This document shows, piece after piece, positions 1 through 12,526 of a stretch of 12,526 nt of DNA. Both the position numbers and the translations under genes were made by a program. The notes under the pieces are model-generated. The model was not told the DNA's origin. It was given only the letters and a program-made list of their open reading frames with translations, and made no database searches. Numbering within the stretch: the stretch's first letter is position 1; the number at the start of each line of letters is the position of its first letter. The DNA comes from a virus (Duplodnaviria > Heunggongvirae > Uroviricota > Caudoviricetes): IMG/VR virus record IMGVR_UViG_2671180012_000008, one strand, 5' to 3'.

Positions 1-38
1 TTAGTGTATGATGGTGTTTTTGAGGTGCTCCAGTGGCT
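1..38 (+). mobile_element. IS1 left-end fragment, just inside the left inverted repeat and running into the insA start
   Basis: The 38 nt TTAGTGTATGATGGTGTTTTTGAGGTGCTCCAGTGGCT match the IS1 left terminal region as I recall it, ending at the GTGGCT that opens insA. Cut by the N-run at 39-48. Confidence 0.7.
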
Positions 39-48
39 NNNNNNNNNN

Positions 49-2097
49 TCCGGTTGCAAAATGGAATTTCGCCGCAGCGGCCTGAATGGCTGTACCGCCT
101 GATGCGGATGCGCCGCCACCAACAGCCCCGCCAATGGCGCTGCCGATACTCCCGACAATCCCCACCATTGCCTGCTTAAGCAGAATTTCTGTCATCATGG
201 ACAGCACGGAACGGGTGAAGCTGCGCCAGTTCTGCTCACTGCCGGTCAGCATCGCTGCCATATTCTGTGCAATACCATCAAAGGTCTGCGTGGCTGCACT
301 TTTTACCTGCGACATACTGTCCGTGGCGCTCTCTTCCCACTCACTCCAGCCGGACTTCAGGCCTGCCATCCAGCTCCCGCGAAGCTGGTCTTCAGCCGCC
401 CAGGTCTTTTTCTGCTCTGACATGACGTTATTCAGCGCCAGCGGATTATCGCCATACTGTTCCTTCAGGCGCTGTTCCGTGGCTTCCCGTTCTGCCTGCC
501 GGTCAGTCAGCCCCCGGCTTTTCGCATCAATGGCGGCCCGTTTTGCCCGTTGCTGCTGTGCGAATTTATCCGCCTGCTGCGCCAGCGCGTTCAGGCGCTC
601 CTGATACGTAACCTTGTCGCCAAGTGCAGCCAGCTGGCGTTTGTACTCCAGCGTCTCATCTTTATGCGCCAGCAGGGATTTCTCCTGTGCAGACAGCTGG
701 CGACGTTGCGCCGCCTCCTCCAGTACCGCGAACTGACTCTCCGCCTTCCACAAATCCCGGCGCTGCTGGCTGATTTTCTCATTTGCTCCGGCATGCTTCT
801 CCAGCGTCCGGAGTTCTGCCTGAAGCGTCAGCAGGGCAGCATGAGCACTGTCTTCCTGACGATCGCCCGCAGACACCTTCACGCCGGACTGTTTCGGCTT
901 TTTCAGCGTCGCTTCATAATCCTTTTTCGCCGCCGCCATCAGCGTGTTGTAATCCGCCTGCAGGATTTTCCCGTCTTTCAGTGCCTTGTTCAGTTCTTCC
1001 TGACGGGCGGTATATTTCTCCAGCGGCGTCTGCAGCCGTTCGTAAGCCTTCTGCGCCTCTTCGGTATATTTCAGCTGTGACGCTTCAGTATCGCTCTGCT
1101 GCTGCGCATTTTTGTCCTGTTGAGTCTGCTGCTCAGCCTTCTTTCGGGCGGCTTCAAGCGCAAGACGGGCCTTTTCACGATCATCCCAGTAACGCGCCCG
1201 CGCTTCATCGTTAACAAAATAATCATCCTTGCGCAGATTCCAGATGTCGTCTGCTTTCTTAAACGCAGCCTCTGCCTTAATCAGCATCTCCTGCGCGGTA
1301 TCAGGACGACCAATATCCAGCACCGCATCCCACATGGATTTGAATGCCCGCGCAGTCCTGTCTGCCCAGGTCTCCAGCGTGCCCATGTTCTCTTTCAGGC
1401 GGCGGGTCTGGTCATCAAACCCTTTCGTTGCGGCCTCGTTCGCCGCCTGCAATGCCCCGGCTTCATCGCCGGAACGCTGCAACTGAGCAACATACGCAAT
1501 CTGCTCCGCCGTCACGTTATGGAACTGGCGTGCCATCGCCGTCAGCCCCGACGTCGGGTCTGTGGTCAGCTTCCCGAAGGCTTCTGCGACCTTGTCCACC
1601 TCCACGCCGGATGCAGAGGAGAAACGCGCCACACTCTGGCTGATGGACGCAATCTGAGCCTCACCGCTTACCCCCGCCTTAACCAGTGCGCTGAGTGACT
1701 CGCTGGTCTGGTTAAACGTCAGCCCTGCCGCCTGCCCGGCTCTGGACAGGACCAGCATACGATCTGCCGTCAGACCCGACTGATTACCGGAAAGGACCAG
1801 CGTTTTGTTGAAATCGGACAGGGTTGAGTTGCCCTGATACCAGGCATACGCCAGCGCACCGGTCGCCACCGCCAGCGAGGTGGCCCCGACCATCGGCAGG
1901 GTGATCGCACCGGCAAGCCCCCTGAACATGGGGATCATCCCGCCGAAGGAGTCCTTCACCTGACCACCCTGTTGCAGCAGGATCAGCCACGGACTCTGCC
2001 CGCCTGCAAGCTGCGTGGCCACGTCGGTGAACTGCGCAGGCAGCATACGCATGGCGGCTTTATACTGCCCGACGGAAATCCCCGCTTTCTGTGCAGC
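49..2097 (-). CDS. H: Lambda-like tail tape measure protein gpH, internal fragment truncated at both ends by N-runs
   Basis: The minus-strand translation runs AAQKAGISVGQYKAAMRMLPAQFTDVATQLAGGQSPWLILLQQGG ... GGTAIQAAAAKFHFATG with a long coiled-coil-like Q/A/K/E-rich middle, near-identical to lambda gpH as I recall it. The Met at 2052 reported by the ORF track is internal; the frame stays open up to the gap at 2098. Confidence 0.92.
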
Positions 2098-2107
2098 NNN
2101 NNNNNNN

Positions 2108-2239
2108 TCAGTCCGTCACCGACGGTGTGAAGGTGAAAGTGAGCCGTGTTCCTGACGGCGTTGCCGGATACAGCATATGGGGGCTGAAGCTGCCGACGCT
2201 GCGCCAGCGCCTGTTCCGCTGTGTGAGTATCCGTGAGAA
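2108..2239 (+). CDS. J: Lambda-like tail tip / host specificity protein J, central fragment (variant 1)
   Basis: Translation QSVTDGVKVKVSRVPDGVAGYSIWGLKLPTLRQRLFRCVSIRE matches the central part of lambda J. It overlaps in content with the next block, so it is a second copy rather than a continuation. Confidence 0.85.
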
Positions 2240-2249
2240 NNNNNNNNNN

Positions 2250-2666
2250 GAAAGTGAGCCGGGTTCCTGACGGCGTTGCCGAGTACAGCGTGTGGGGGCT
2301 GAAGCTGCCGACGCTGCGCCAGCGCCTGTTCCGCTGTGTGAGTATCCGTGAGAACGATGACGGCACGTATGCCATCACTGCCGTGCAGCATGTACCGGAG
2401 AAAGAAGCCATCGTGGATAACGGGGCGCACTTTGACGGCGACCAGAGCGGAACGGTAAACGGTGTCACGCCGCCAGCGGTGCAGCACCTGACCGCAGAAG
2501 TCACCGCAGACAGCGGGGAATACCAGGTGCTGGCGCGCTGGGACACGCCGAAGGTGGTGAAGGGCGTGAGTTTCCTGCTTCGCCTGACCGTGGCAGCGGA
2601 TGACGGCAGTGAGCGGCTGGTCAGCACGGCCCGGACGACGGAAACCACATACCGCTTCACGCAGCT
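2250..2666 (+). CDS. J: Lambda-like J, central fragment (variant 2)
   Basis: Translation KVSRVPDGVAEYSVWGLKLPTLRQRLFRCVSIRENDDGTYAITAVQHVPEKEAIVDNGAHFDGDQSGTVNGVTPPAVQHLTAEVTADSGEYQVLARWDTPKVVKGVSFLLRLTVAADDGSERLVSTARTTETTYRFTQ, near-identical to lambda J. Confidence 0.9.
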
Positions 2667-2676
2667 NNNNNNNNNN

Positions 2677-3109
<433 letters not shown>

Positions 3110-3119
3110 NNNNNNNNNN

Positions 3120-3725
3120 AAGCCGCCCCTGGTTTCCTTTTACAGCGAATAAATAATCACCGCCCTGTTTTTGTATCTTCTCTGCAATATCTTTCTGGCA
3201 TCCCATCGCATCAGTTGTGATGATTTTTCCTTTAATATCCAGCATGTTAAGAAGTTCAGGAATGGCTGTAATCTCATTAGATTTCTCATCCGTCTTGATC
3301 TGTCCGATGACCAGACTGTGCATTGTTGAGAACGCACTAATGACATGAATCGCTCCCCTGCGGCGACTCTTGTCATAAGAGTGCCGGAGCGTTTTTCCAT
3401 CAATTGCAATGACGTCTTTATCATCTGAAGAATGGCAGTCACGCATCCAGTTAATAAAGCACTCGTGAAATTTTGCAGGACTGATACAGGATACAACTCT
3501 GGCAATGGTATCGTGAACAGGAATACCATTTTCAAAATCACCATATTGCTTCAAAAAATCGAGATGTGTTTCCCCAAAATCCTCTATATCTTCCCAACCT
3601 TCTGCACCAGAAATAACGGCACAAATAGTCAACAGTAGAATATCCGATAATTTATGTTCCACATTCCAGGCTTGTCTGTAATCGGGGATAACAGAAATAT
3701 GTTCCATCAATTTTTTAAGTTCCAT
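3120..3725 (-). CDS. ISAs1-family (H-repeat-associated) transposase, N-terminal 202 codons, truncated by the gap at 3110-3119
   Basis: Translation [78 protein letters not shown] ... [15 protein letters not shown] matches the E. coli H-repeat/ISAs1 transposase family. ATG at 3725 is preceded by a strong SD (TAAGGAG, 6 nt spacer). Confidence 0.85.
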
Positions 3726-3770
3726 TTTGTTCTCCTTAATTATGTAAGGAGTATTTGATCCAAGGCAAGA

Positions 3771-3853
3771 TTACGAAAGCCCGCTCCCCGCAAGGACTGA
3801 CGCCAGATAGTTTCTGTCCATGGCTGCTTTTCGCATCTTACGTCTTAACCCTG
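3771..3853 (-). CDS. Probable C-terminal end of an ISAs1-family transposase (last 26 codons plus stop)
   Basis: Minus-strand frame reads GLRRKMRKAAMDRNYLASVLAGSGLS then TAA at 3771-3773, which matches the C-terminus I recall for H-repeat transposases. It lies only 45 nt upstream of the transposase start at 3725. The 5-prime side is cut by the gap at 3854-3863. Confidence 0.5.
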
Positions 3854-3863
3854 NNNNNNNNNN

Positions 3864-4152
3864 CAGTGACCCGGCACATACGGCAACCGCGCCCGGCGGA
3901 TTGAGTGCGAAAGCGCCTGCAATGACCCCGCTGATGCTGGACACCTCCACCCGTAAGCTGGTTGCGTGGGATGGCACCACCGACGGTGCTGCCGTTGGCA
4001 TTCTTGCGGTTGCTGCTGACCAGACCAGCACCACACTGACGTTCTACAAGTCCGGCACGTTCCGTTATGAGGATGTGCTCTGGCCGGAGGCTGCCAGCGA
4101 CGAGACGAAAAAACGGACCGCGTTTGCCGGAACGGCAATCAGCATCGTTTAA
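3864..4152 (+). CDS. D: Lambda-like head decoration protein gpD, C-terminal 95 codons (copy 1)
   Basis: Translation [95 protein letters not shown] then TAA at 4150-4152, matching lambda gpD. Confidence 0.92.
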
Positions 4153-4170
4153 CTTTACCCTTCATCACTA

Positions 4171-4194
4171 AAGGCCGCCTGTGCGGCTTTTTTT
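4171..4194 (+). terminator. Hairpin followed by a T-run in the D-E intergenic spacer (intrinsic-terminator-like)
   Basis: GCCGC (4174-4178), loop CTGT, GCGGC (4183-4187), then seven T at 4188-4194. Sits between the D stop and the E start. Confidence 0.5.
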
Positions 4195-4207
4195 ACGGGA
4201 TTTTTTT

Positions 4208-4216
4208 ATGTCGATG
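4208..4216 (+). CDS. E: First three codons of the major capsid protein gene E, cut by the gap
   Basis: ATGTCGATG lies 55 nt after the D stop, the same spacing and start as lambda E. Only 9 nt are present. Confidence 0.55.
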
Positions 4217-4226
4217 NNNNNNNNNN

Positions 4227-4766
4227 CGTAGTCAACATTCAGATAACGTGTTTCTTCACGTAATTCATTGCCGTCAACCGTTGGTCCCTGCAACTCTTCA
4301 CCGTAATGAGTAAACGATCCCACAGCTTCTGGTATCGCCTCCATTACTTCCTGTGCAATAACGCCAGCATAAGGCATCCCGTTTTCCCTGAGCGTGTAGG
4401 TGTATCCGTTCATTTTACGGATTGCTTTCGTCGCGTCGCTGATAACGAGAATATCGTCTTTAAGGTCGCGGTCTGATGACTGATTCAGCATTGTGCAATT
4501 AATAGCGCCATTTACATCAAACAACTGGCCTGCTGACGTTTTTGCGCATAAAACAGATACGCAGCAGACGTTCCAACCTCAAAAACGTTTTGTCGAGTAC
4601 TGGAACCCCACACCCTGACAGAAAACGGTAGTTCTGCATTACCTGAGTTCTGTAAAACAAAACGATTACCAGTCCCTGATTGCTTTGTAAGGGTTAAATC
4701 AACGGTTGAGTTAACCTCATCCTTGTTGATAGTGAGCGCCTGCGCTTTAGCCCCGTTAACAGCACC
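4227..4766 (-). CDS. Phage tail fibre C-terminal region with an intramolecular-chaperone (endosialidase-chaperone / peptidase S74-like) domain; reading frame interrupted at 4539-4543
   Basis: The upstream frame (4766 down to stop at 4512) reads GAVNGAKAQALTINKDEVNSTVDLTLTKQSGTGNRFVLQNSGNAELPFSVRVWGSSTRQNVFEVGTSAAYLFYAQK. The second frame (4524 down to 4227) reads FDVNGAINCTMLNQSSDRDLKDDILVISDATKAIRKMNGYTYTLRENGMPYAGVIAQEVMEAIPEAVGSFTHYGEELQGPTVDGNELREETRYLNVDY, with the SDRxLK..GxIAQE..PE pattern typical of auto-cleaving tail-fibre chaperone domains. Confidence 0.7.
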
Positions 4767-4776
4767 NNNNNNNNNN

Positions 4777-5127
4777 CTGCGCCGCTGACAACGGCACCTG
4801 ATACAGCCCTGTGGCCTCCAGATTATCCAGATAGAGATTCTGACCGTTACGCCACCAGTCATCCTCGCGATGAAAATCCGGCATCTCAATCCCCGCCAGA
4901 TGGTAAGCATCCCGGAACAGCGTGTAACAGTCCGTCACCCCGTGCTCAAAGCGCCGCCCGGAAAGATGTGGCACACAGCGGAACTTGTGAATCGCCCCCC
5001 GGCAAACCAGCCACCACGGCAAATCACTCTGCACCTGCAGCCGCCGGTCGGCCTCACTCAGCCATGGCAGACCACCGGGGTGGCTGTGGACCAGCGCCAC
5101 AATCTCACCCTGCATTTCTGCCTGCAG
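4777..5127 (-). CDS. K: Lambda-like tail assembly protein gpK (JAB/MPN plus NlpC/P60-type), internal fragment
   Basis: Translation LQAEMQGEIVALVHSHPGGLPWLSEADRRLQVQSDLPWWLVCRGAIHKFRCVPHLSGRRFEHGVTDCYTLFRDAYHLAGIEMPDFHREDDWWRNGQNLYLDNLEATGLYQVPLSAAQ matches lambda K. The HSHPGG motif is the JAB metal-binding signature. Confidence 0.88.
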
Positions 5128-5288
5128 NNNNNNNNNNAGGGATGTTACCTCGCGCCCGACCCGGTAGCCGTAAGGGATAAGCCGAGGGCACCGCGCAGCG
5201 GCGATTTTGTTCGCCAGAGCCCGGGGGTGCAGGGGGCGGCGGCGATTGGCCGCCCCCTGCGCGCTCCTTGCGCCAGTGNNNNNNNNNN

Positions 5289-5423
5289 AAAACAAAAGGC
5301 TCAGTCGAAAGACTGGGCCTTTTGTTTTATCTGTTGTTTGTCGGTGAACGCTCTCCTGAGTAGGACAAATCCGCCGGGAGCGGATTTGAACGTTGCGAAG
5401 CAACGGCCCGGAGGGTGGCGGGC
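5289..5423 (+). other. Distal (post-5S) region of an rRNA operon, including the T1-type terminator
   Basis: Sequence AAAACAAAAGGCTCAGTCGAAAGACTGGGCCTTTTGTTTTATCTGTTGTTTGTCGGTGAACGCTCTCCTGAGTAGGACAAATCCGCCGGGAGCGGATTTGAACGTTGCGAAGCAACGGCCCGGAGGGTGGCGGGC is the E. coli rrn T1 terminator region (familiar from rrnB T1 in expression vectors), with two substitutions in the stem. Confidence 0.85.
5294..5329 (+). terminator. rrn T1 intrinsic terminator hairpin
   Basis: Stem AAAAGGCTCAGTC (5294-5306), loop GAAA, stem GACTGGGCCTTTT (5311-5323), followed by a GTTTTAT U-tract. Confidence 0.8.
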
Positions 5424-5433
5424 NNNNNNNNNN

Positions 5434-6320
5434 TCCAGACTCATAGCGGGATAAAAGCTGACCGTTCGGATCAACCGCCAGTGCATCCCTGTAATGCTCC
5501 CGAACCCTCTGAGCTTTTTCGCTGACACTCATCGCTGTGAATTCTGCTTCACTCATCGTGTCGAAAGGACTGGCGTTATGTGGCTTCAAAGCCTCAAGAA
5601 TTGCCTTCAGGGTGGATTCCTCTCCGTAATGGGCAAGCGCATCATTCCAGTCACCAAAAACCGGTGGCAGCACAATGTCACACTGACACGCTTTTGCAGC
5701 AGCTTCAGCCCTGTTCTGGCCTGAACTATTCAGATCTCGGTCCGCTGCAATAATTAGCTGATACCCCGGATACTTGTTATGGGCAACGCTGGCCAGAGAA
5801 AGAAAGTTGACCGCCGAAAATGCCACCATGACGGCTTCTCCTGTCAGATGATGAATGGTAAGCGCCGTGGCGTAGCCTTCCGCAATCCACATCCTTCTTA
5901 CTGAACTCCCGCTCCCTTCTATCAGATGATAGGCCTCCTTAACCTGACCCCCTTTAAGAAAACACTTGCTACCATTGCCACTGATAAGCTGAATATTCAC
6001 CAGCACCCCGTCAGTGTTATAGAGCGGGACGATCAAATCACCGGGGCGGAACATCACCCCACCGGTTTTATGATCTGAAGTCAGCTCATGGCAAATATGC
6101 TCCGGGAAACCTTTATGTGTAAGATAAGTGTTTCCGGCAGATTCACGCGAGGCTTGCAGCAGTCGCGCGGCAAGTGCTGCCGCTGCATCTTTCCCGCTAT
6201 CGGCATCGGCGGTTAACGTCTTGACTTCGGAATTAGCTATAGAGAGACCATGTGTCAGTCCATGTATCCTGTCAGCTGCTTCACTGATATCCACATTCAG
6301 TGCCCTGGTGACAAGCGCTA
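5434..6320 (-). CDS. Toprim-domain primase-like protein (P4-type / plasmid-type primase family), internal fragment cut at both ends
   Basis: Minus-strand translation contains WIAEGYATALTIHHLTGEAVMVAFSAVNFLSLASVAHNKYPGYQLIIAADRDLNSSGQNRAEAAAKACQCDIVLPPVFGDWNDAL, i.e. the conserved Glu (EGxxTA) and DxD motifs of a toprim fold. The GTG at 6294 used by the track is probably not the real start because the frame is open up to the gap. Confidence 0.6.
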
Positions 6321-6330
6321 NNNNNNNNNN

Positions 6331-6474
6331 TAGTGACCCGGCTCATACCGCAACCGCGCCCGGCGGATTGAGTGCGAAAGCGCCTGCAATGACCCCGCTG
6401 ATGCTGGACACATCCACCCGTAAGCTGGTTGCGTGGGATGGCACCACCGACGGTGCTGCCGTTGGCATTCTTGC
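6331..6474 (+). CDS. D: Lambda-like gpD fragment (copy 2)
   Basis: Translation [47 protein letters not shown] is identical in protein to copy 1 at 3864-4007; the nucleotide differences are all at third codon positions. Confidence 0.9.
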
Positions 6475-6484
6475 NNNNNNNNNN

Positions 6485-6590
6485 CTTATCGTTGGCGTCC
6501 TTCCACTCTTTCGAAAACTCATCCAGTTTGCTGGCGTTATCCTCCGTCAGGTCGACTTTTTCCAGCAGCTCCTTGCCGAGATGGGATTCG
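6485..6590 (-). CDS. J: Lambda-like J C-terminal-half fragment (copy 2)
   Basis: Translation [35 protein letters not shown], a close variant of the J segment encoded at about 2720-2830. Confidence 0.8.
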
Positions 6591-6600
6591 NNNNNNNNNN

Positions 6601-6711
6601 TCATTCATCGTATTCTGCGCACCATTCTGTTGCCCCTTCCGTGCTGACAAGCGCCAGCGGCAGGCCGCGATGGTCGCAGTGGTACAGGTGGATTTTTCGC
6701 GCCGGCGTGTA
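6601..6711 (-). CDS. Rhs core (conserved C-proximal core region), short fragment
   Basis: Translation [36 protein letters not shown] matches the conserved Rhs core of E. coli Rhs proteins. Confidence 0.8.
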
Positions 6712-6721
6712 NNNNNNNNNN

Positions 6722-6830
6722 AAATCAGCCACAGCGCCTCCCGTTATTGCATTCTGGCCAGGCCGCGCTCTGTCATTTCGGCTGCCACACCGGCAGAGAC
6801 ACGAAACGCCGTTCCCGGCAGCACAAATGC
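6722..6830 (-). CDS. FI: Lambda-like FI C-terminus (6744-6830) followed by the start of FII (GTG at 6730-6732)
   Basis: Translation AFVLPGTAFRVSAGVAAEMTERGLARMQ then TAA, 11 nt spacer containing GGGAGG, then GTG GCT GAT TT (M-A-D-F) as in FII. The 11 nt spacing equals the lambda FI-FII gap. Confidence 0.75.
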
Positions 6831-6840
6831 NNNNNNNNNN

Positions 6841-7119
6841 GGGCCAGGTGGTAAGCACTTCCTGCTCAATCTGTTTAACGGCTTCATTCATGGACGGCAT
6901 CTGCGTCTTCTGCGGATGGTTATGCCACAGGGACATCGCCACCAGAAACGCGCCGGTTCTGATGGCGTCTTCCACAGTAAACTTCCGGTTGCTGTCTGAC
7001 TCCGCCTGTTCTGCCTGCCGTTTCATCAGGGCGAGATGCTCAATACGCTGCAGGGCTGACAGTTCAGAAAGCGTGACGGTCACACCGTTATGTTCAAATG
7101 ATTCGGTTTTCAGGAACAT
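6841..7119 (-). CDS. G: Lambda-like tail assembly chaperone gpG, N-terminal 93 codons (copy A)
   Basis: Translation MFLKTESFEHNGVTVTLSELSALQRIEHLALMKRQAEQAESDSNRKFTVEDAIRTGAFLVAMSLWHNHPQKTQMPSMNEAVKQIEQEVLTTWP. ATG at 7119 with SD GGAGAG, 15 nt after the V stop as in lambda. The G-T frameshift site is not within this fragment. Confidence 0.9.
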
Positions 7120-7134
7120 CGCTGACTCTCCGGA

Positions 7135-7521
7135 TTAACTGGCGGTGACGTTGATTTCTGCAACCGCAGCAAGTTCACCATTACCGGATACGACCGGAAT
7201 GTTGACCTTGCCTGCAGCAACACCTTTCACGGTGATGGTCATACCACTGACCGACACGGTGGCTTTTGTTTTATCCGCAGACACCGCACGGAAGCTCTTG
7301 TCGGTTGCGCCCTCCGGCTGGAATGCCACGGTCAGTGTGGTGCTCTGCCCTTTCACTACGGAAGCACTGGCGGGTGTCACCGTCATGCCGGTTGTCGCCG
7401 TCACCGTGCTGCGATCTTCTGCCATCGACGGACGTCCCACATTGGTGACCTTCACCGTGCGGGTGATCACTTCCTTCGCCGTCACCGCCTTACCGATACT
7501 GCTGACCCAGCCACGGAACAC
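7135..7521 (-). CDS. V: Lambda-like major tail protein gpV, C-terminal part including the Ig-like (Big_2) domain (copy A)
   Basis: Translation [127 protein letters not shown] then stop at 7135-7137. Confidence 0.9.
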
Positions 7522-7531
7522 NNNNNNNNNN

Positions 7532-7856
7532 TACGGTGAAGGTCACCAATGTGGGCCGTCCGTCAATGGCAGAAGATCGCAGTACGGTGACGGCGGCAAC
7601 CGGTATGACCGTGACGCCTGCCAGCTCCTCGGTGGTGAAAGGGCAGAGCACCACGCTGACCGTGGCATTCCAGCCGGAGGGCGCAACTGACAAGAGCTTC
7701 CGTGCGGTGTCAGCGGATAAAACAAAAGCCACCGTGTCGGTCAGTGGTATAACCATCACCGTGAAAGGCGTTGCTGCAGGTAAGGTCAACATTCCGGTTG
7801 TATCCGGTAATGGTGAACTTGCTGCGGTTGCAGAAATCACTGTCACCGACAGTTAA
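7532..7856 (+). CDS. V: Lambda-like gpV C-terminal part (copy B, opposite orientation to copy A)
   Basis: Translation [105 protein letters not shown] then TAA at 7854-7856. Confidence 0.9.
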
Positions 7857-7871
7857 TCCGGAGAGTCAGCG

Positions 7872-7969
7872 ATGTTCCTGAAAACCGAATCATTTGAACA
7901 TAACGGCGTGACCGTCACGCTTTCTGAACTGTCAGCCCTGCAGCGTATTGAGCATCTCGCCCTGATGAA
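7872..7969 (+). CDS. G: Lambda-like gpG N-terminal 32 codons (copy B)
   Basis: ATG at 7872, 15 nt after the V stop; translation MFLKTESFEHNGVTVTLSELSALQRIEHLALM. Confidence 0.85.
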
Positions 7970-7980
7970 NNNNNNNNNNC

Positions 7981-8139
7981 GAGCTGCTGCACCATATTCC
8001 TGAACAACTGAGCAAACGAGAGAGGTATACCGACAAATGGCAGCGACGCACACACTCCCTCTGGCGTCACCGGGCATGGCGCGCATCTGCCTTTACGGGG
8101 ATTTACAACGATTTGGCCGCCGCATCGACCTTCGAGTGA
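7981..8139 (+). CDS. K: Lambda-like gpK C-terminal 52 codons
   Basis: Translation ELLHHIPEQLSKRERYTDKWQRRTHSLWRHRAWRASAFTGIYNDLAAASTFE then TGA at 8137-8139. It overlaps the I start by 103 nt in another frame, exactly as in lambda. Confidence 0.85.
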   Translation, partial: ELLHHIPEQLSKRERYTDKWQRRTHSLWRHRAWRASAFTGIYNDLAAASTFE

Positions 8140-8458
8140 AAACGGGGTCCGAAGCCATTCGGGCGCTGGCCACACAGCTCCCGGCGTTTCGTCAGAAACT
8201 GAGCGACGGCTGGTATCAGGTACGGATTGCCGGGCAGGATGTCAGCACGTCCGGATTAACGGCGCAGTTACATGAGACTCTGCCTGATGGCGCTGTGATT
8301 CATATTGTTCCCAGAGTCGCCGGGGCCAAGTCAGGTGGCGTATTCCAGATTGTCCTGGGGGCTGCCGCCATTGCCGGATCATTCTTTACCGCCGGGGCCA
8401 CCCTTGCAGCATGGGGGGCAGCCATTGGGGCCGGTGGTATGACCGGCATCCTGTTTTC
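8037..8458 (+). CDS. I: Lambda-like tail assembly protein gpI, N-terminal 140 codons
   Basis: Translation MAATHTLPLASPGMARICLYGDLQRFGRRIDLRVKTGSEAIRALATQLPAFRQKLSDGWYQVRIAGQDVSTSGLTAQLHETLPDGAVIHIVPRVAGAKSGGVFQIVLGAAAIAGSFFTAGATLAAWGAAIGAGGMTGILF, near-identical to lambda I. Confidence 0.9.
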
Positions 8459-8468
8459 NNNNNNNNNN

Positions 8469-8576
8469 TCCGCCCGGTGTGTCCATATCGAGCAGAATGC
8501 CGTCCACCATCGGGTCGCTGGCAGCCTGTTGCAGACGGGCGATAATGCCGTTGTAACCGGTCATCCCCGAGTACGG
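8469..8576 (-). CDS. C: Lambda-like capsid assembly protease gpC (S49 / ClpP-like peptidase), internal fragment
   Basis: Translation PYSGMTGYNGIIARLQQAASDPMVDGILLDMDTPGG, matching lambda C around the S49 peptidase fold. Confidence 0.8.
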
Positions 8577-8586
8577 NNNNNNNNNN

Positions 8587-8697
8587 TGCCAGCGTCGCGA
8601 GTGCCTCCTGGGCAGTCAGGCTGTCGCCGGACACCGCATCCGTCAGGCGGCTGATCCCAAGCTGGCCTGCAAGCGCACAAAAGAAAACCCGCGCATA
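8587..8697 (-). CDS. C: Lambda-like gpC, more N-terminal fragment
   Basis: Translation YARVFFCALAGQLGISRLTDAVSGDSLTAQEALATLA. It is in the same orientation and order as the previous block, consistent with one gene having a missing internal piece under the 10 N. Confidence 0.75.
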
Positions 8698-8886
8698 NNN
8701 NNNNNNNGATAACTTTCCCGTTATTACCGTTGATTTCCGTGCCAGTGGAATCCTTGCCGTCAACGGTGGTTTTGCCGCTGTTATTCGCNNNNNNNNNNAG
8801 CCAAAGCGCGCAAACTGGAACAGCAACAGGCTAATGCGGAACCAGAAGAACAGGTTGATCCGCGCAAAGCCGCCGTNNNNNNNNNN

Positions 8887-8964
8887 CTTGAGCGCCAGTA
8901 GCGCAGCTTCCTCGGCAACGGCGGCAGGAAATTCCGCGAAGGCCGCAAAAACGTCTGAGACGAA
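8887..8964 (+). CDS. Possible side tail fibre (Stf-like) N-terminal low-complexity repeat region, short fragment
   Basis: Translation LSASSAASSATAAGNSAKAAKTSET resembles the Ala/Ser-rich repeat (..SSAGRAASSATAAENSARAAKTSETN..) of the lambda side tail fibre. Only 26 codons are present. Confidence 0.45.
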
Positions 8965-8974
8965 NNNNNNNNNN

Positions 8975-9137
8975 CCAAAAACAGAGAAAGGAAACGACAG
9001 AGGCCCAAAAGCTCGTTTTCAGCACCTGTCGTTTCCTTTCTTTTCAGGGGGTATTTTAAATAAAAACATTAAGTTACGACGAAGAAGAACGGAAATGCCT
9101 TAAACCGGAAAATTTTCATAAATAGCGAAAACCCGCG
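8975..9137 (-). promoter_or_regulatory. cosB / Nu1 leader region of a lambda-like cos site (terminase small-subunit binding region); Nu1 itself lies beyond the gap
   Basis: The reverse complement reads CTCGCGGGTTTTCGCTATTTATGAAAATTTTCCGGTTTAAGGCATTTCCGTTCTTCTTCGTCGTAACTTAATGTTTTTATTTAAAATACC..., near-identical to the first 180 nt or so of the lambda genome. Confidence 0.8.
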
Positions 9138-9149
9138 AGGTCGCCGCCC
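9138..9149 (-). other. cosN 12-nt cohesive-end sequence
   Basis: Plus-strand AGGTCGCCGCCC is the reverse complement of the lambda cohesive end GGGCGGCGACCT, followed by CGTAACCTGTCGG, the reverse complement of the lambda right end. Confidence 0.85.
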
Positions 9150-9348
9150 CGTAACCTGTCGGATCGCCGGAAAGGACCCGCAAAATGATAATAATTATCA
9201 TCTGCATGTCACAACGTGCATCTACGCAATCAAACCACGTCAAATAATCAATTATGACGCAGATATCGTATTAATTGATCTGCATCAACTTAACGTAAAA
9301 ACAACTTCAGACAATACAAATCAGCGACACTGAATACGGGACAACCTC

Positions 9349-9582
9349 ATGTCAACGAAGAACAGAACCCGCAGAACAACAACCCGCAACATCCGCTTTC
9401 CTAACCAAATGATTGAACAAATTAACATCGCTCTTGATCAAAAAGGGTCCGGGAATTTCTCAGCCTGGGTCATTGAAGCCTGCCGCCGGAGACTGTGCTC
9501 AGAAAAAAGAGTTTCTCCTGAAGCAAACAAAGAAAAGAGTGACATTACTGAATTGCTCAGAAAACAGATCAGACCAGATTGA
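9349..9582 (+). CDS. Small basic ribbon-helix-helix-like protein (77 aa), function unknown
   Basis: Complete ORF ATG 9349 to TGA 9582. N-terminus MSTKNRTRRTTTRNIRFPNQMIEQINIALDQKGSGNFSAWVIEACRRRL has the Arc/MetJ/CopG pattern of a basic tail, beta strand (NIRFP), then two helices. The SD is weak. Confidence 0.6.
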   Translation: MSTKNRTRRTTTRNIRFPNQMIEQINIALDQKGSGNFSAWVIEACRRRLCSEKRVSPEANKEKSDITELLRKQIRPD

Positions 9583-9638
9583 AGCAATTTAGATAATCGT
9601 GCAGACTACGCCCCTCATATCACATGGAAGGTACTACA

Positions 9639-10049
9639 ATGGCTCAGGTTGCCATTTTTAAACAAATATTCGATAAAGTGCGAAAAGATTTAAACTGTGA
9701 ATTGTTTTATTCTGAACTAAAACGTCACAACGTCTCACATTATATTTACTATCTAGCCACAGATAATATTCACATCGTGTTAGAAAACGATAACACTGTG
9801 TTAATAAAAGGACTTAAAAAGGTTGTAAATGTTAAATTCTCAAGAAACACGCATCTTATAGAAACGTCCTATGATAGGTTGAAATCAAGAGAAATCACAT
9901 TTCAGCAATACAGGGAAAATCTTGCTAAAGCAGGAGTTTTCCGGTGGGTTACAAATATCCACGAACAAAAAAGATATTACTATACCTTTGATAATTCATT
10001 ACTCTTTACTGAAAACATACAGAGCACATCACAAATGTTTCCACACTAA
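9639..10049 (+). CDS. DUF1398-family protein (lambdoid putative envelope protein, YbcV-like)
   Basis: ATG at 9639 with SD GGAAGG 7 nt upstream (the track start at 9624 is less likely); TAA at 10047-10049. The C-terminal [42 protein letters not shown] fits the DUF1398 signature I recall. AT-rich coding sequence. Confidence 0.75.
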
Positions 10050-10317
10050 ACCATAACGTCCGGTTTCTTCTACCCCTGCACCGGACTGGCTGACATGAAG
10101 AGCAACCCCGCGTTCAGTTGACGCGTTAATAACCCGGTGTGCATCGTTTTTGATTATTCCCGCACACTCACGCAGAAGGAATTCCCCGTCGGGCTACGGT
10201 CATGGTTAATGCGGGAATACGGCGACGATACAGCGCATGATGTGTCAGGCTTGAATACCTTTATCCGTTAAAAGGGATATCAGTTAAGTTATCCCGTGTA
10301 GGGTATAAACCATTATC

Positions 10318-10344
10318 AAAGCCACTCTGTAGGGAGTGGCTTTT
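10318..10344 (+). terminator. Hairpin with flanking A and T runs (possible bidirectional intrinsic terminator) in the gene-free gap
   Basis: AAA GCCACTC TGTAGG GAGTGGC TTTT: a 7 bp perfect stem (10321-10327 and 10334-10340) with a 6 nt loop, flanked by AAA and TTTT. Confidence 0.4.
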
Positions 10345-10552
10345 GTAATGACAATAAAAAGCCCCGCGAATACGAGGCTAAATCCTGGTATTTGTAATGA
10401 CTGGCTCTTATCTCAACGCAGCCCCTTACCGCGCGCAAGATGCTCAATATCAAGCATCAGCAATGAGATATTTAATCTGGATTCACTCCAGAAGTGATCA
10501 CCACCCTGTCTACAGAGCCAGATGTGAAGGATGATGAGTAAAATTATCGCTA

Positions 10553-10694
10553 TCATCGAAGGCATTGCGTCCTGATATATTCCTGAAGCGTTCTCAGTGC
10601 TGTCTGGTCTCTGATGATTCCGTCCCGGATACCGAGAACGTTTCGTCCAGCAACTGGAGAGAGTTCGACGGTGGCATCATTGCCCATGCCGGAG
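10553..10694 (-). CDS. Rz: Rz-like i-spanin, C-terminal 46 codons
   Basis: Translation SGMGNDATVELSPVAGRNVLGIRDGIIRDQTALRTLQEYIRTQCLR then TGA; aligns in pattern with the lambda Rz C-terminus (..SGVDNAASPRLADTAERDYFTLRERLITMQKQLEGTQKYINEQCR), including the terminal QC-R. Confidence 0.65.
10594..10694 (-). CDS. Rz1: Embedded Rz1-like o-spanin, C-terminal part, in the +1 frame of Rz
   Basis: The alternative frame reads PAWAMMPPSNSLQLLDETFSVSGTESSETRQH then TGA at 10594-10596; the PAWxMxPP stretch resembles the proline-rich lambda Rz1 (PPPAWIMQPPPDW). Confidence 0.5.
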
Positions 10695-10704
10695 NNNNNN
10701 NNNN

Positions 10705-10741
10705 TGCCGATCTGACGTATGTCATTACCTATGAAATGTGA
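10705..10741 (+). CDS. U: Lambda-like tail terminator gpU, last 11 codons
   Basis: Translation [11 protein letters not shown] then TGA at 10739-10741, matching the gpU C-terminus; 7 nt before the V start as in lambda. Confidence 0.8.
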
Positions 10742-10748
10742 GGACGAT

Positions 10749-11038
10749 ATGCCTGTACCAAATCCAGCAATACCGGTGAAAGGTGCCGGAACCACCCTGT
10801 GGGTTTATAACGGGAGCGGCGACCCTTATGCGAACCCGCTTTCAGACGTTGACTGGTCGCGTCTGGCAAAAGTTAAAGACCTGACGCCCGGCGAACTGAC
10901 CGCTGAGTCCTATGACGACAGCTATCTCGATGATGAAGATGCAGACTGGACTGCGACCGGGCAGGGGCAGAAATCTGCCGGAGATACCAGCTTCACGCTG
11001 GCGTGGATGCCCGGAGAGCAGGGGCAGCAGGCGCTGCT
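10749..11038 (+). CDS. V: Lambda-like major tail protein gpV, N-terminal 96 codons
   Basis: Translation [96 protein letters not shown]. The true start is ATG 10749 (SD GAGGA), not the track start at 10719. Confidence 0.92.
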
Positions 11039-11048
11039 NNNNNNNNNN

Positions 11049-11162
11049 CACGCCGCATCCGACATCTAACGCCCGAGCCGGTTGCCTGATGCGACGCTGA
11101 CGCGTCTTATCAGGCCTACACCGCTGTGAAGTGCTCCACCCCGTAGGTCGGATAAGGCGGTT
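11049..11162. repeat. BIME-type cluster of REP (palindromic unit) elements in alternating orientation
   Basis: A complete REP GCCTGATGCGACGCTGACGCGTCTTATCAGGCCTAC at 11084-11119 is flanked by REP-like halves in inverse orientation (ACGCCGCATCCGACAT and CCCCGTAGGTCGGATAAGGCGGTT). This is a typical E. coli chromosomal intergenic repeat. Confidence 0.75.
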
Positions 11163-11172
11163 NNNNNNNNNN

Positions 11173-11427
11173 GACCGTGACCAGTTCAGCCGTATCCTGA
11201 ATCACGGTATCCGGCTGCGCTGATACCACCTCATTTTCATGCCCGGTCAGCACATTTTCCCGGCTGAGAGGGGTGTCCTGACCGGCAGTTTCATCCGTGT
11301 CATCAAGCTCTTCTTCCAGCTCTGCCACACGAAGCGCCAGTTCTTCTTTCGTTCCCGTCAAACTGACATCGCGGTTCAGTTGCTCACCCAGCTCCTGAAG
11401 ACGGGCAATCAGTTCATCTTTCGTCAT
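11173..11427 (-). CDS. FI: Lambda-like DNA-packaging protein gpFI, N-terminal 85 codons
   Basis: Translation MTKDELIARLQELGEQLNRDVSLTGTKEELALRVAELEEELDDTDETAGQDTPLSRENVLTGHENEVVSAQPDTVIQDTAELVTV. ATG at 11427 with SD GGAGGAG, 41 nt after the E stop as in lambda. Confidence 0.85.
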
Positions 11428-11448
11428 GAACTCCTCCACAGAGAGAAA

Positions 11449-11466
11449 ATGGCCCCGAAGGGCCAT
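11449..11466 (-). terminator. GC hairpin in the E-FI intergenic spacer (terminator-like; minus-strand reading is followed by TTTTCTCTCT)
   Basis: ATGGCCC, loop CGAA/TTCG, GGGCCAT: perfect 7 bp stem. It lies between the E stop (11469-11471) and the FI SD. Confidence 0.4.
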
Positions 11467-11468
11467 GA

Positions 11469-11556
11469 TTACGCCAGTTGAACGGACACGAACTCATCAG
11501 GGTCAGCCAGCAGCATCAGCGGTGCTGACTGAATCATGGTGAACTCACGCGCCGGA
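11469..11556 (-). CDS. E: Lambda-like major capsid protein gpE, last 28 codons
   Basis: Translation PAREFTMIQSAPLMLLADPDEFVSVQLA then TAA at 11469-11471. Confidence 0.75.
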
Positions 11557-11774
11557 NNNNNNNNNNAATTCACCACAGCGATGTGGTAACTTCGGTGAGA
11601 TTGTGAAAGTTTGCACTCATCGGGGAAGGGTGAGAACCTTCGACTAAGGTTCGATTCGAGCGAAAGCGAGAGAACGTTGCCACAGGCAACGGCCCGAAGG
11701 GTGAGGAGCGAAGCGACGAATAATCCTTCCCCCACCACCATCTCAAGCATTACCTCGAAATTTGAATTACCCCT

Positions 11775-11835
<61 letters not shown>

Positions 11836-11845
11836 NNNNNNNNNN

Positions 11846-11945
11846 CCGGATAAGCTGCTGCAGCTGATGCGGGTTCTCTTCATTCAGCAGGTTGCCCCAT
11901 TCATCATATTCTGCGCACCACGCTGTTGCCCCTTCCGTGCTGATG
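11846..11945 (-). CDS. Rhs core fragment (second copy, longer into the core)
   Basis: Translation [33 protein letters not shown] matches the conserved Rhs core shortly upstream of the core/toxin-tip boundary. Confidence 0.85.
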
Positions 11946-11955
11946 NNNNNNNNNN

Positions 11956-12266
11956 GCCGAAAGTAAAACGCAGACGGTCGATGTTTGCCGACGTGATGGC
12001 GCGGGTGATCGGCGTGTCATATTTCACTTCCGTACCCAGCACCGTCTCGGAGCCGGAGGATTCAAATCCCTCCGGCGGAGTCTGCTCCTGCTCACCAGCC
12101 CGGAACACCACCGTGACACCGGTGATGTTGGTATTCCCCTCACTGTCCAGCACCGGCGTACTGTTCAGCAGCACGCTTTTTAATCCATCCACCGGACCTT
12201 CAACCGGCCCTTCACTGATGGCGTCTATCACGCTCAGCATCTGGGATGATTTCAGGTTGTCCTTCG
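11956..12266 (-). CDS. J: Lambda-like J, N-terminal-region fragment
   Basis: Translation KDNLKSSQMLSVIDAISEGPVEGPVDGLKSVLLNSTPVLDSEGNTNITGVTVVFRAGEQEQTPPEGFESSGSETVLGTEVKYDTPITRAITSANIDRLRFTFG matches the lambda J N-terminal region. Confidence 0.88.
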
Positions 12267-12276
12267 NNNNNNNNNN

Positions 12277-12396
12277 GTCGGCCTGGAATTTATCCAGCGC
12301 ATCGTGCAGCGGTTGTGGGAACTCATAGTTACCGGTGTAGGTCACGCCGAAAGTCGGCACCACGCCGATGGTGTTTTCGTCACAGGCTTCAATCAT
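12277..12396 (-). CDS. gadA/gadB: Glutamate decarboxylase (GadA/GadB) internal fragment, copy 1
   Basis: Translation [40 protein letters not shown] matches the internal segment of E. coli GadA/GadB (..[24 protein letters not shown]..). The Met is internal. Confidence 0.88.
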
Positions 12397-12406
12397 NNNN
12401 NNNNNN

Positions 12407-12526
12407 ATCGGCCTGGAATTTATCCAGCGCATCGTGCAGCGGTTGTGGGAACTCATAGTTACCAGTGTAGGTCACGCCGAAAGTCGGCACCACGCCGATG
12501 GTGTTTTCGTCACAGGCTTCAATCAT
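12407..12526 (-). CDS. gadA/gadB: Glutamate decarboxylase (GadA/GadB) internal fragment, copy 2
   Basis: Same 40 codons as copy 1 with two synonymous third-position differences (ACC/ACT and GAC/GAT), consistent with the two gad paralogues. Confidence 0.88.

Follow-up and report, generated by a model that had tools for sequence, protein, structure and literature searches.

Composition of the window and the junction block

The DNA considered here, hereafter the window (positions 1-12526, that is, the whole stretch of 12,526 nt that was analysed), carries on its minus strand two pieces of an insertion sequence (IS) transposase gene, the end of one piece being followed closely by the start of the other. 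Both pieces are ISAs1-family (ISEc1/H-repeat) transposase sequence, and they represent two H-repeat copies, here called A and B, placed tail-to-head. They lie on a single 734-bp contig at positions 3120-3853, the junction block, which is bounded by runs of ten Ns (N10) at 3110-3119 and 3854-3863; position 3853, the right limit of the feature as originally noted, is thus the contig end. A BLAST comparison of the full 1291-bp ISEc1 with the window confines all ISEc1 sequence to this block. The preliminary description of the locus placed the two pieces within one uninterrupted block, which holds for the joint itself, although the block extends for only 734 bp between its N10 gaps.

The rest of the window is built in the same way. 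It consists of 33 blocks, 38-2049 bp in length, each spaced from the next by exactly ten Ns (39-48, 2098-2107, and so on to 12397-12406), and one of the listed open reading frames, of 248 aa, runs across such a gap. The blocks are E. coli repeat sequences, among them an IS1 edge, fragments of lambdoid tape-measure (H), J and tail-fibre genes, a Qin/Rac-like prophage lysis region, and an RtT repeat. The stretch at 3120-3853 is a short repeat contig out of a fragmented E. coli draft assembly. Since the window strings together repeat contigs that are unrelated to each other, adjacency across a gap is uninformative, and adjacency close to a block end should not be over-read.

Two further observations concern other blocks of the window. 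The RtT RNA (Rfam RF00391, tyrT-associated repeat) at 11609-11740 on the plus strand is a full-length match of 132.9 bits and belongs to another repeat contig. In addition, a near-duplicate sequence (ttctcacggatactcacacagcggaacaggcgctggcgcagcgtcggcagcttcagccccca...) recurs, with a few differences, in the neighbouring blocks at 2108-2239 and 2250-2666 (minus strand), which have the look of allelic forms of one prophage gene that derive from different prophages and went into separate small contigs on assembly.

Anatomy of the junction

To map the ends of the two copies, we used an ISEc1 reference built from independent copies, located in the SE11 O-antigen locus, in RhsC of strain EcPF16, and in one further Rhs element. 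The element is 1291 bp long, starts with the left terminal inverted repeat (IRL) CAGGGAAAGATCA, and finishes with the right end ...TAATCTTGCCCTG, whose reverse complement, the right terminal inverted repeat (IRR) read inwards, is CAGGGCAAGATTA. The transposase ATG is located 144 nt inside the left end, and the stop codon falls within the right terminal repeat. One of the copies examined (L003:2793-4103) has a perfect 10-bp direct repeat, GCGGGATGCC, on both flanks, which is evidence of bona fide transposition with a 10-bp target duplication; the other copies examined are without such repeats and have rearranged flanks.

Copy A is represented by its 3' end only (3761-3853, minus strand), corresponding to ISEc1 nt 1199-1291. 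Translation of the minus strand from 3851 to 3771 gives GLRRKMRKAAMDRNYLASVLAGSGLS followed by a stop, a sequence identical to the C-terminus of the intact ISEc1 transposase. The 26-codon open reading frame end, with its stop codon at 3771-3773, is thus the end of a transposase, as the preliminary description had proposed. Beyond these codons, copy A retains its IRR, TAATCTTGCCTTG, at 3773-3761 (minus strand), complete up to its tip, and the match to independent ISEc1 copies stops at 3761 in every genomic context.

At this point the tip of the IRR (3761) is joined, with no base in between, to ISEc1 nt 110 (3760), with which copy B begins. Copy B occupies 3120-3760 on the minus strand and covers ISEc1 nt 110 to about 750, namely 35 nt of leader and transposase codons 1-202, and it has neither the IRL nor the first 109 nt of the leader. 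Its first four bases, GATC at 3757-3760 (minus strand), are a Dam site within the TGTGATCnnATAC(T) motif of ISAs1-family leaders discussed later. The ATG of the copy B transposase, at 3723-3725 (minus strand), opens a run of 202 codons that matches DDE_Tnp_1_assoc (PF13808) with E = 4e-34 and DDE_Tnp_1 (PF01609) with E = 2e-17. From the stop codon of copy A to this ATG the minus-strand spacer measures 45 nt (3770-3726), and the arrangement given in the preliminary description, with the start codon at 3725, is correct to the base.

The block is 96.8-98.9% identical in nucleotide sequence to the independent ISEc1 copies compared, with 98.6-98.9% against reference copies over both of its segments, and its RefSeq matches carry the label "ISAs1-like element ISEc1 family transposase". 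ISEc1 nt 751-1198 are absent from the window, which holds fragments only and no complete 1291-bp element with both terminal repeats.

Three origins had been offered for the tail-to-head order: tandem H-repeat copies, a circular IS junction, or a circularly collapsed repeat contig. The mapping of the IS ends, which the preliminary description had itself named as a possible refutation, rules out the circle, the simple tandem dimer and the collapsed contig, in that the IRR is followed by nt 110 and not by the IRL. What survives of the proposal is a relic of an H-repeat tandem.

The joint in complete genomes

The joint is also found outside the draft assembly. Finished E. coli chromosomes contain the 174 nt around it in a single piece with 100% identity, and a 60-mer centred on the junction is covered at at least 80% in 116 of 5426 complete E. 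coli genomes (∼2%). The 174-nt query counted 1668 genomes, a figure that is probably too high, since nearby pieces were joined into one place and RhsC-type tandems would count.

The RhsC-type tandem is another tail-to-head H-repeat joint, observed at L003:6033-6070 (EcPF16, ybfD region) and also in the loci L016 and L019, in which the IRR (TAATCTTTCCCTG) runs straight into ISEc1 at about nt 25 (CTTTTTGTACTAAAT...). Most two-piece matches of the 174-nt query are probably due to this tandem. With a second type of joint at RhsC/ybfD, decayed tandems emerge as a recurring H-repeat feature.

Seven of the loci were opened, those of ATCC 8739, CUVM53, PO06101, 64EVA, 214-4, SUISSEKPC3NDM5, and B-3008, and the order is the same in all seven: Rhs core/extension, a sel1-repeat gene, H-repeat A, the 45-nt spacer, the copy B fragment, and then yafV-ivy-fadE. 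Copy A is a pseudogene in 7/7, having either an internal stop or an interruption by IS1 or ISKpn19. Copy B is likewise a pseudogene in the seven yafV loci, a 375-bp fragment annotated as "ISAs1 family transposase, missing C-terminus". This relic of copy B runs from IS nt 110 to about 515 and is fused to a degenerate IS tail (nt 1263-1289). In ATCC 8739 (L001:6425-6520), copy B is ∼80% identical to ISEc1 over nt 441-519, after which come the degenerate tail of nt 1263-1289 and yafV. The yafF pseudogene of K-12 is a further-deleted remnant of the same yafV-adjacent site, where the segment between the two IS tails was apparently lost in K-12, leaving yafF.

The yafV-adjacent joint is one old event that has been vertically inherited and is decaying; it represents no active tandem dimer and no circle junction, it is functionless there, and the exact locus is already annotated as pseudogenes in RefSeq. 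As for the route, the most economical one would be a deletion with one end at the right tip of copy A and the other in the leader of a copy B lying downstream, which may have been IS-mediated (adjacent) or illegitimate; an adjacent deletion leaves no positive signature. A nested insertion was also considered as the origin of the joint and is unsupported: a synthetic query for its reciprocal left joint (copy B nt 60-119 followed by the IRL) returned only two-piece matches within single copies, and no single-piece reciprocal joint.

Sequence beyond the joint

Regarding the far end of the contig, the agreement with the finished genomes extends through contig nt 1-424, which are identical to the yafV relic; the copy B part of this stretch is nt 94-424 (window 3760-3430). 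Contig nt 162, 191, and 254 carry the relic-type bases, and all canonical copies differ there. From contig nt 425 onwards the yafV relic diverges, with 16 mismatches in the 79 nt of nt 425-503, and then ends. Contig nt 408-734, on the other hand, have 0 mismatches to the canonical RhsC copy L003b, and window 3429-3120 is canonical ISEc1. The far end is therefore probably chimeric, since beyond nt ∼425 the block follows canonical ISEc1 and not the yafV relic, and window 3429-3120 is probably a repeat-collapse chimera. Identical stretches between repeat copies are where short-read assemblers cross over.

The contig would not be chimeric if the source strain carried an intact or longer copy B past the joint, that is, an ancestral and less decayed yafV locus. 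The contig is indeed unbroken over 641 nt of copy B, and the relic of the finished genomes has decayed secondarily, as seen in its diverged stretch and internal deletion, so that a less decayed state must once have existed. Against this, the whole 734-bp block occurs as a single piece in none of the 5426 complete genomes, and the change from relic to canonical sequence takes place within ∼170 nt (contig nt 255-424) that are identical between the copies, a typical site of short-read crossover. We regard an intact or longer copy B in the source strain as a minority possibility.

A far smaller probability attaches to the joint itself being an assembly artefact, either a self-closed repeat contig or a mis-join of two IS fragments. 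Such an origin would suit a window made of tiny repeat contigs, a contig whose far end looks chimeric, and the failure to find all 734 bp in one piece in any complete genome. However, contig nt 1-424, including the joint and the SNPs specific to copy B, are 100% identical to the locus in independently finished genomes, and a self-closed contig would show the full 154 nt from stop to ATG. An artefactual joint is accordingly improbable.

The least probable reading of all, to which we give next to no credit, is that two IS ends abut here, either in a circle excised from the chromosome or in a perfect head-to-tail dimer, an active transposition intermediate as in IS911, IS2, and IS30: the same transposase gene does stand in tail-to-head order on one contig, and TTGCCT-18-CATAAT, which weakly resembles a promoter, extends across the joint, but the IRL and 109 nt are absent, the second copy starting at IS nt 110, the identical joint is a stable yafV-adjacent chromosomal locus in complete genomes with both copies pseudogenes, and the joint-spanning match reaches 9/12, such matches being no commoner in the region than by chance. 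The 45 nt observed between stop and ATG exclude three origins at once, namely the circle, the perfect tandem dimer and the self-closed contig, each of which needs ∼154 nt there, including the IRL.

The leader hairpin of ISEc1

A 7-bp inverted repeat free of mismatches lies in the spacer between the two transposase pieces. Read on the minus strand, CTCCTTA (3751-3745) forms the 5' arm, CATAAT (3744-3739) the loop, and TAAGGAG (3738-3732) the 3' arm, and the whole hairpin (3732-3751) corresponds to ISEc1 nt 119-138. The SD sequence of the transposase gene, AAGGAG at 3737-3732 (minus strand), lies inside the 3' arm, 6 nt before the ATG, and is fully paired, which bears out the pairing that the preliminary description had pointed to. 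Where that description treated the hairpin as a feature of the junction, we find it instead in the leader of every ISEc1 copy examined; it is a property of the ISEc1 leader and not of the joint.

Folding of the 5' untranslated region, which had also been proposed, recovers the hairpin (-8 kcal/mol) in the MFE as well as the centroid structure for all RNA contexts tried, with starts placed inside copy A, at the left end of the IS, or just upstream. For the 31-nt segment around the hairpin the z-score is -6, and 0/200 dinucleotide shuffles reach an equally good fold; the inclusion of long flanks reduces the z-score to between -0.8 and -2. The stem is short, at 7 bp. A perfect 7-bp inverted repeat with a loop of 3-10 nt arises in 1.8% of the shuffles of the 45-nt spacer. 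Rfam 15 at its gathering score has no family over 3726-3773, and its sole match in the window is the RtT RNA. An antisense "terminator-like" element at 3732-3751 was considered as well and was rejected, having a weak T-tail and no conservation in relatives.

Among the variant copies, two intact-looking E. coli ones have changes in the 5' arm (C to T and A to G) that leave the stem paired, through G.U wobbles of the sense strand. The partial tandem copies of RhsC have a further variant, with TAAGGTG and a 1-nt deletion; one pair and the SD are broken in it, and it looks degenerate.

In the transposase mRNA, the 3' arm would pair the SD with the upstream anti-SD. By likeness to IS200, such pairing would reduce the access of the 30S subunit, lower translation initiation, and keep the synthesis of transposase low. 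The preliminary description saw in the hairpin a way to keep read-through transcripts from being translated; whether read-through transcripts or all transcripts would be affected is moot at the yafV joint, because copy B is a truncated pseudogene there.

Conservation among ISAs1-family leaders

One scan of species-representative genomes provided ISAs1-family elements with 44-99% protein identity from Enterobacteriaceae, Vibrio, Photobacterium, Aeromonas, Alteromonadales, Pasteurellaceae, and others. Nearly all of these relatives have a hairpin immediately 5' of the ATG, with a purine-rich SD in the 3' arm and with differing stem sequences. Examples of 5'/3' arms include TATCTCCT/AGGAGATA, ACTCCC/GGGAG, and ATACTCTC/GAGAGTAT, along with AGACTCCT/AGGAGTCT, ACTGGCTTT/GGAGCCAGT, and GATCTTCC/GGAGATC. 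A few Vibrio members have no obvious SD in the 3' arm of the hairpin.

Whether the two arms change together was approached in more than one way. An alignment-free test used 34 leaders, each split at its midpoint, with the halves recombined between elements: cognate halves pair at -7.5 kcal/mol compared to -3.7 kcal/mol for non-cognate ones, a difference that 0/20000 permutations reach, and z = -8.7 when the 21 distinct stem types are counted. A covariance-model alignment, which was fitted to the modelled structure and thus leans towards it, and whose leaders are mutually related, has 86% of its cells paired vs 75% in shuffles, with changes on both sides in 5/7 pairs. Its covariation score is 0.245 vs 0.110 in shuffles (0/500), with slid controls at 0.03-0.08. 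MAFFT combined with RNAalifold on 33 family leaders returned no consensus structure, because the loops vary in length and the 3' arms fall out of register.

Directly 5' of the hairpin, the ISAs1-family leaders share a second element, the TGTGATCnnATAC(T) motif, which contains the Dam site GATC and is nearly invariant. In the motif alignment, ATC is invariant in 33/33 sequences and the flanking T/G/A are conserved at at least 90%. The motif lies ∼30-40 nt 5' of each transposase ATG (loci L009-L087), and the truncated copy B of the junction block begins exactly at its GATC. The relatives recovered all come from Dam-positive gammaproteobacterial groups, with the exception of one cyanobacterial locus (L071), the leader of which has neither motif.

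Many family members also have a conserved TTTGAC ∼20 nt further upstream of TGTGATCnnATAC(T). The distance from TTGAC to TATACT in the family is 20 nt, too far for a standard sigma-70 promoter, and no conserved canonical sigma-70 arrangement was found across the family leaders scanned. Intact ISEc1 copies have a promoter-like TATACA-17-CATAAT (9/12), the -10 of which is the hairpin loop. Scans for promoters showed no excess over chance in ISEc1, the joint region or the family leaders, with matches in the former two no commoner than in shuffles.

These data allow a different view of the inverted repeat, in which it is no RNA brake and has instead a DNA-level role, as a protein-binding palindrome or as part of a promoter or Dam-regulated region, or is a neutral by-product. 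The hairpin stands directly 3' of the nearly invariant GATC..ATAC(T) motif, the ISEc1 loop CATAAT is itself a -10-like hexamer, some family members are without a clear SD in the 3' arm, and the stem has only 7 bp, all of which would agree with such a role. The variation of the stem points the other way, because its sequence differs widely across the family while complementarity is kept, which argues against a conserved protein site. Moreover, the G.U pairs of the stem-keeping variants, formed on the sense strand, would be A.C mismatches on the other strand, and in most members the 3' arm is a purine-rich SD located 4-10 nt from the ATG. We consider a DNA-level or neutral origin of the repeat unlikely. 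A conserved, covarying stem that holds the SD fits, as far as comparative analysis can suggest, a translational brake of the IS200 kind.

The explanation that we favour for the locus as a whole, and hold to be likely, is an inherited chromosomal ISEc1 scar captured on a short repeat contig, together with a leader hairpin that is built into ISEc1 and would act as a translational brake.

Comparison with known insertion sequences

The occurrence of partial H-repeats in tail-to-head order next to Rhs elements has been known from the early 1990s onwards, and Zhao et al. reportedly described the tandem partial H-repeats of RhsC in J Bacteriol in 1993. The junction block shares with the ISEc1/H-repeat of the E. 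coli Rhs elements the transposase domains and the right terminal repeat; it differs in that only nt 1199-1291 are present, fused to about nt 110-750, and in that its joint is the yafV-adjacent one and not that of RhsC.

The circle or dimer joints of IS911, IS2, IS30, and IS21 also bring IS sequence into tail-to-head order. In those systems, however, the IRR and the IRL abut within a few bp and make a strong junction promoter, whereas here the IRL is absent and the locus is a fixed pseudogene. A practical lesson is that, where IS sequence stands tail-to-head, its ends should be located before a circle or a dimer is proposed.

Control by sequestration of the SD is already familiar from IS leaders. 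IS10 and IS50 have a GATC site close to their expression signals, as does ISEc1. ISEc1 also resembles the fold-back inhibition of IS10 and IS50 in that the ribosome-binding site is paired with upstream IS sequence. For that mechanism to work, native transcripts must begin within the pairing region and thereby avoid the inhibition; the scans of ISEc1 gave only promoter-like matches of 9/12, no commoner than in shuffles. For IS200, a stem-loop in the 5'UTR of tnpA sequesters the SD, and experiments have demonstrated that it prevents 30S binding and represses translation (PMC4513863). The ISEc1 leader is alike in having an inverted repeat with the SD in its 3' arm, just 5' of the transposase start. 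It differs in that IS200 encodes an HUH Y1 transposase, and ISEc1 a DDE one, in that the IS200 stem is much longer, and in that IS200 additionally has an antisense RNA and an upstream terminator.

Implications for the ISAs1 family

Full-text literature searches found nothing on the regulation of ISAs1/H-rpt expression, and the searchable literature yielded no description of SD sequestration in the ISAs1 family or of the TGTGATCnnATAC(T) motif. It is conceivable, and we put it forward as a speculative idea, that the two elements form one control module of the family, in which TGTGATCnnATAC(T), with its Dam GATC beside a -10-like hexamer, and the covarying SD hairpin would let methylation (and with it replication) and mRNA structure jointly gate the transposase.

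The ISAs1 family, the regulation of which is essentially uncharacterised, appears to carry a conserved SD hairpin beside an invariant GATC motif, a modest new feature of these elements. Taken together, the hairpin and the motif provide a testable hypothesis for why H-repeats are rarely seen to transpose.
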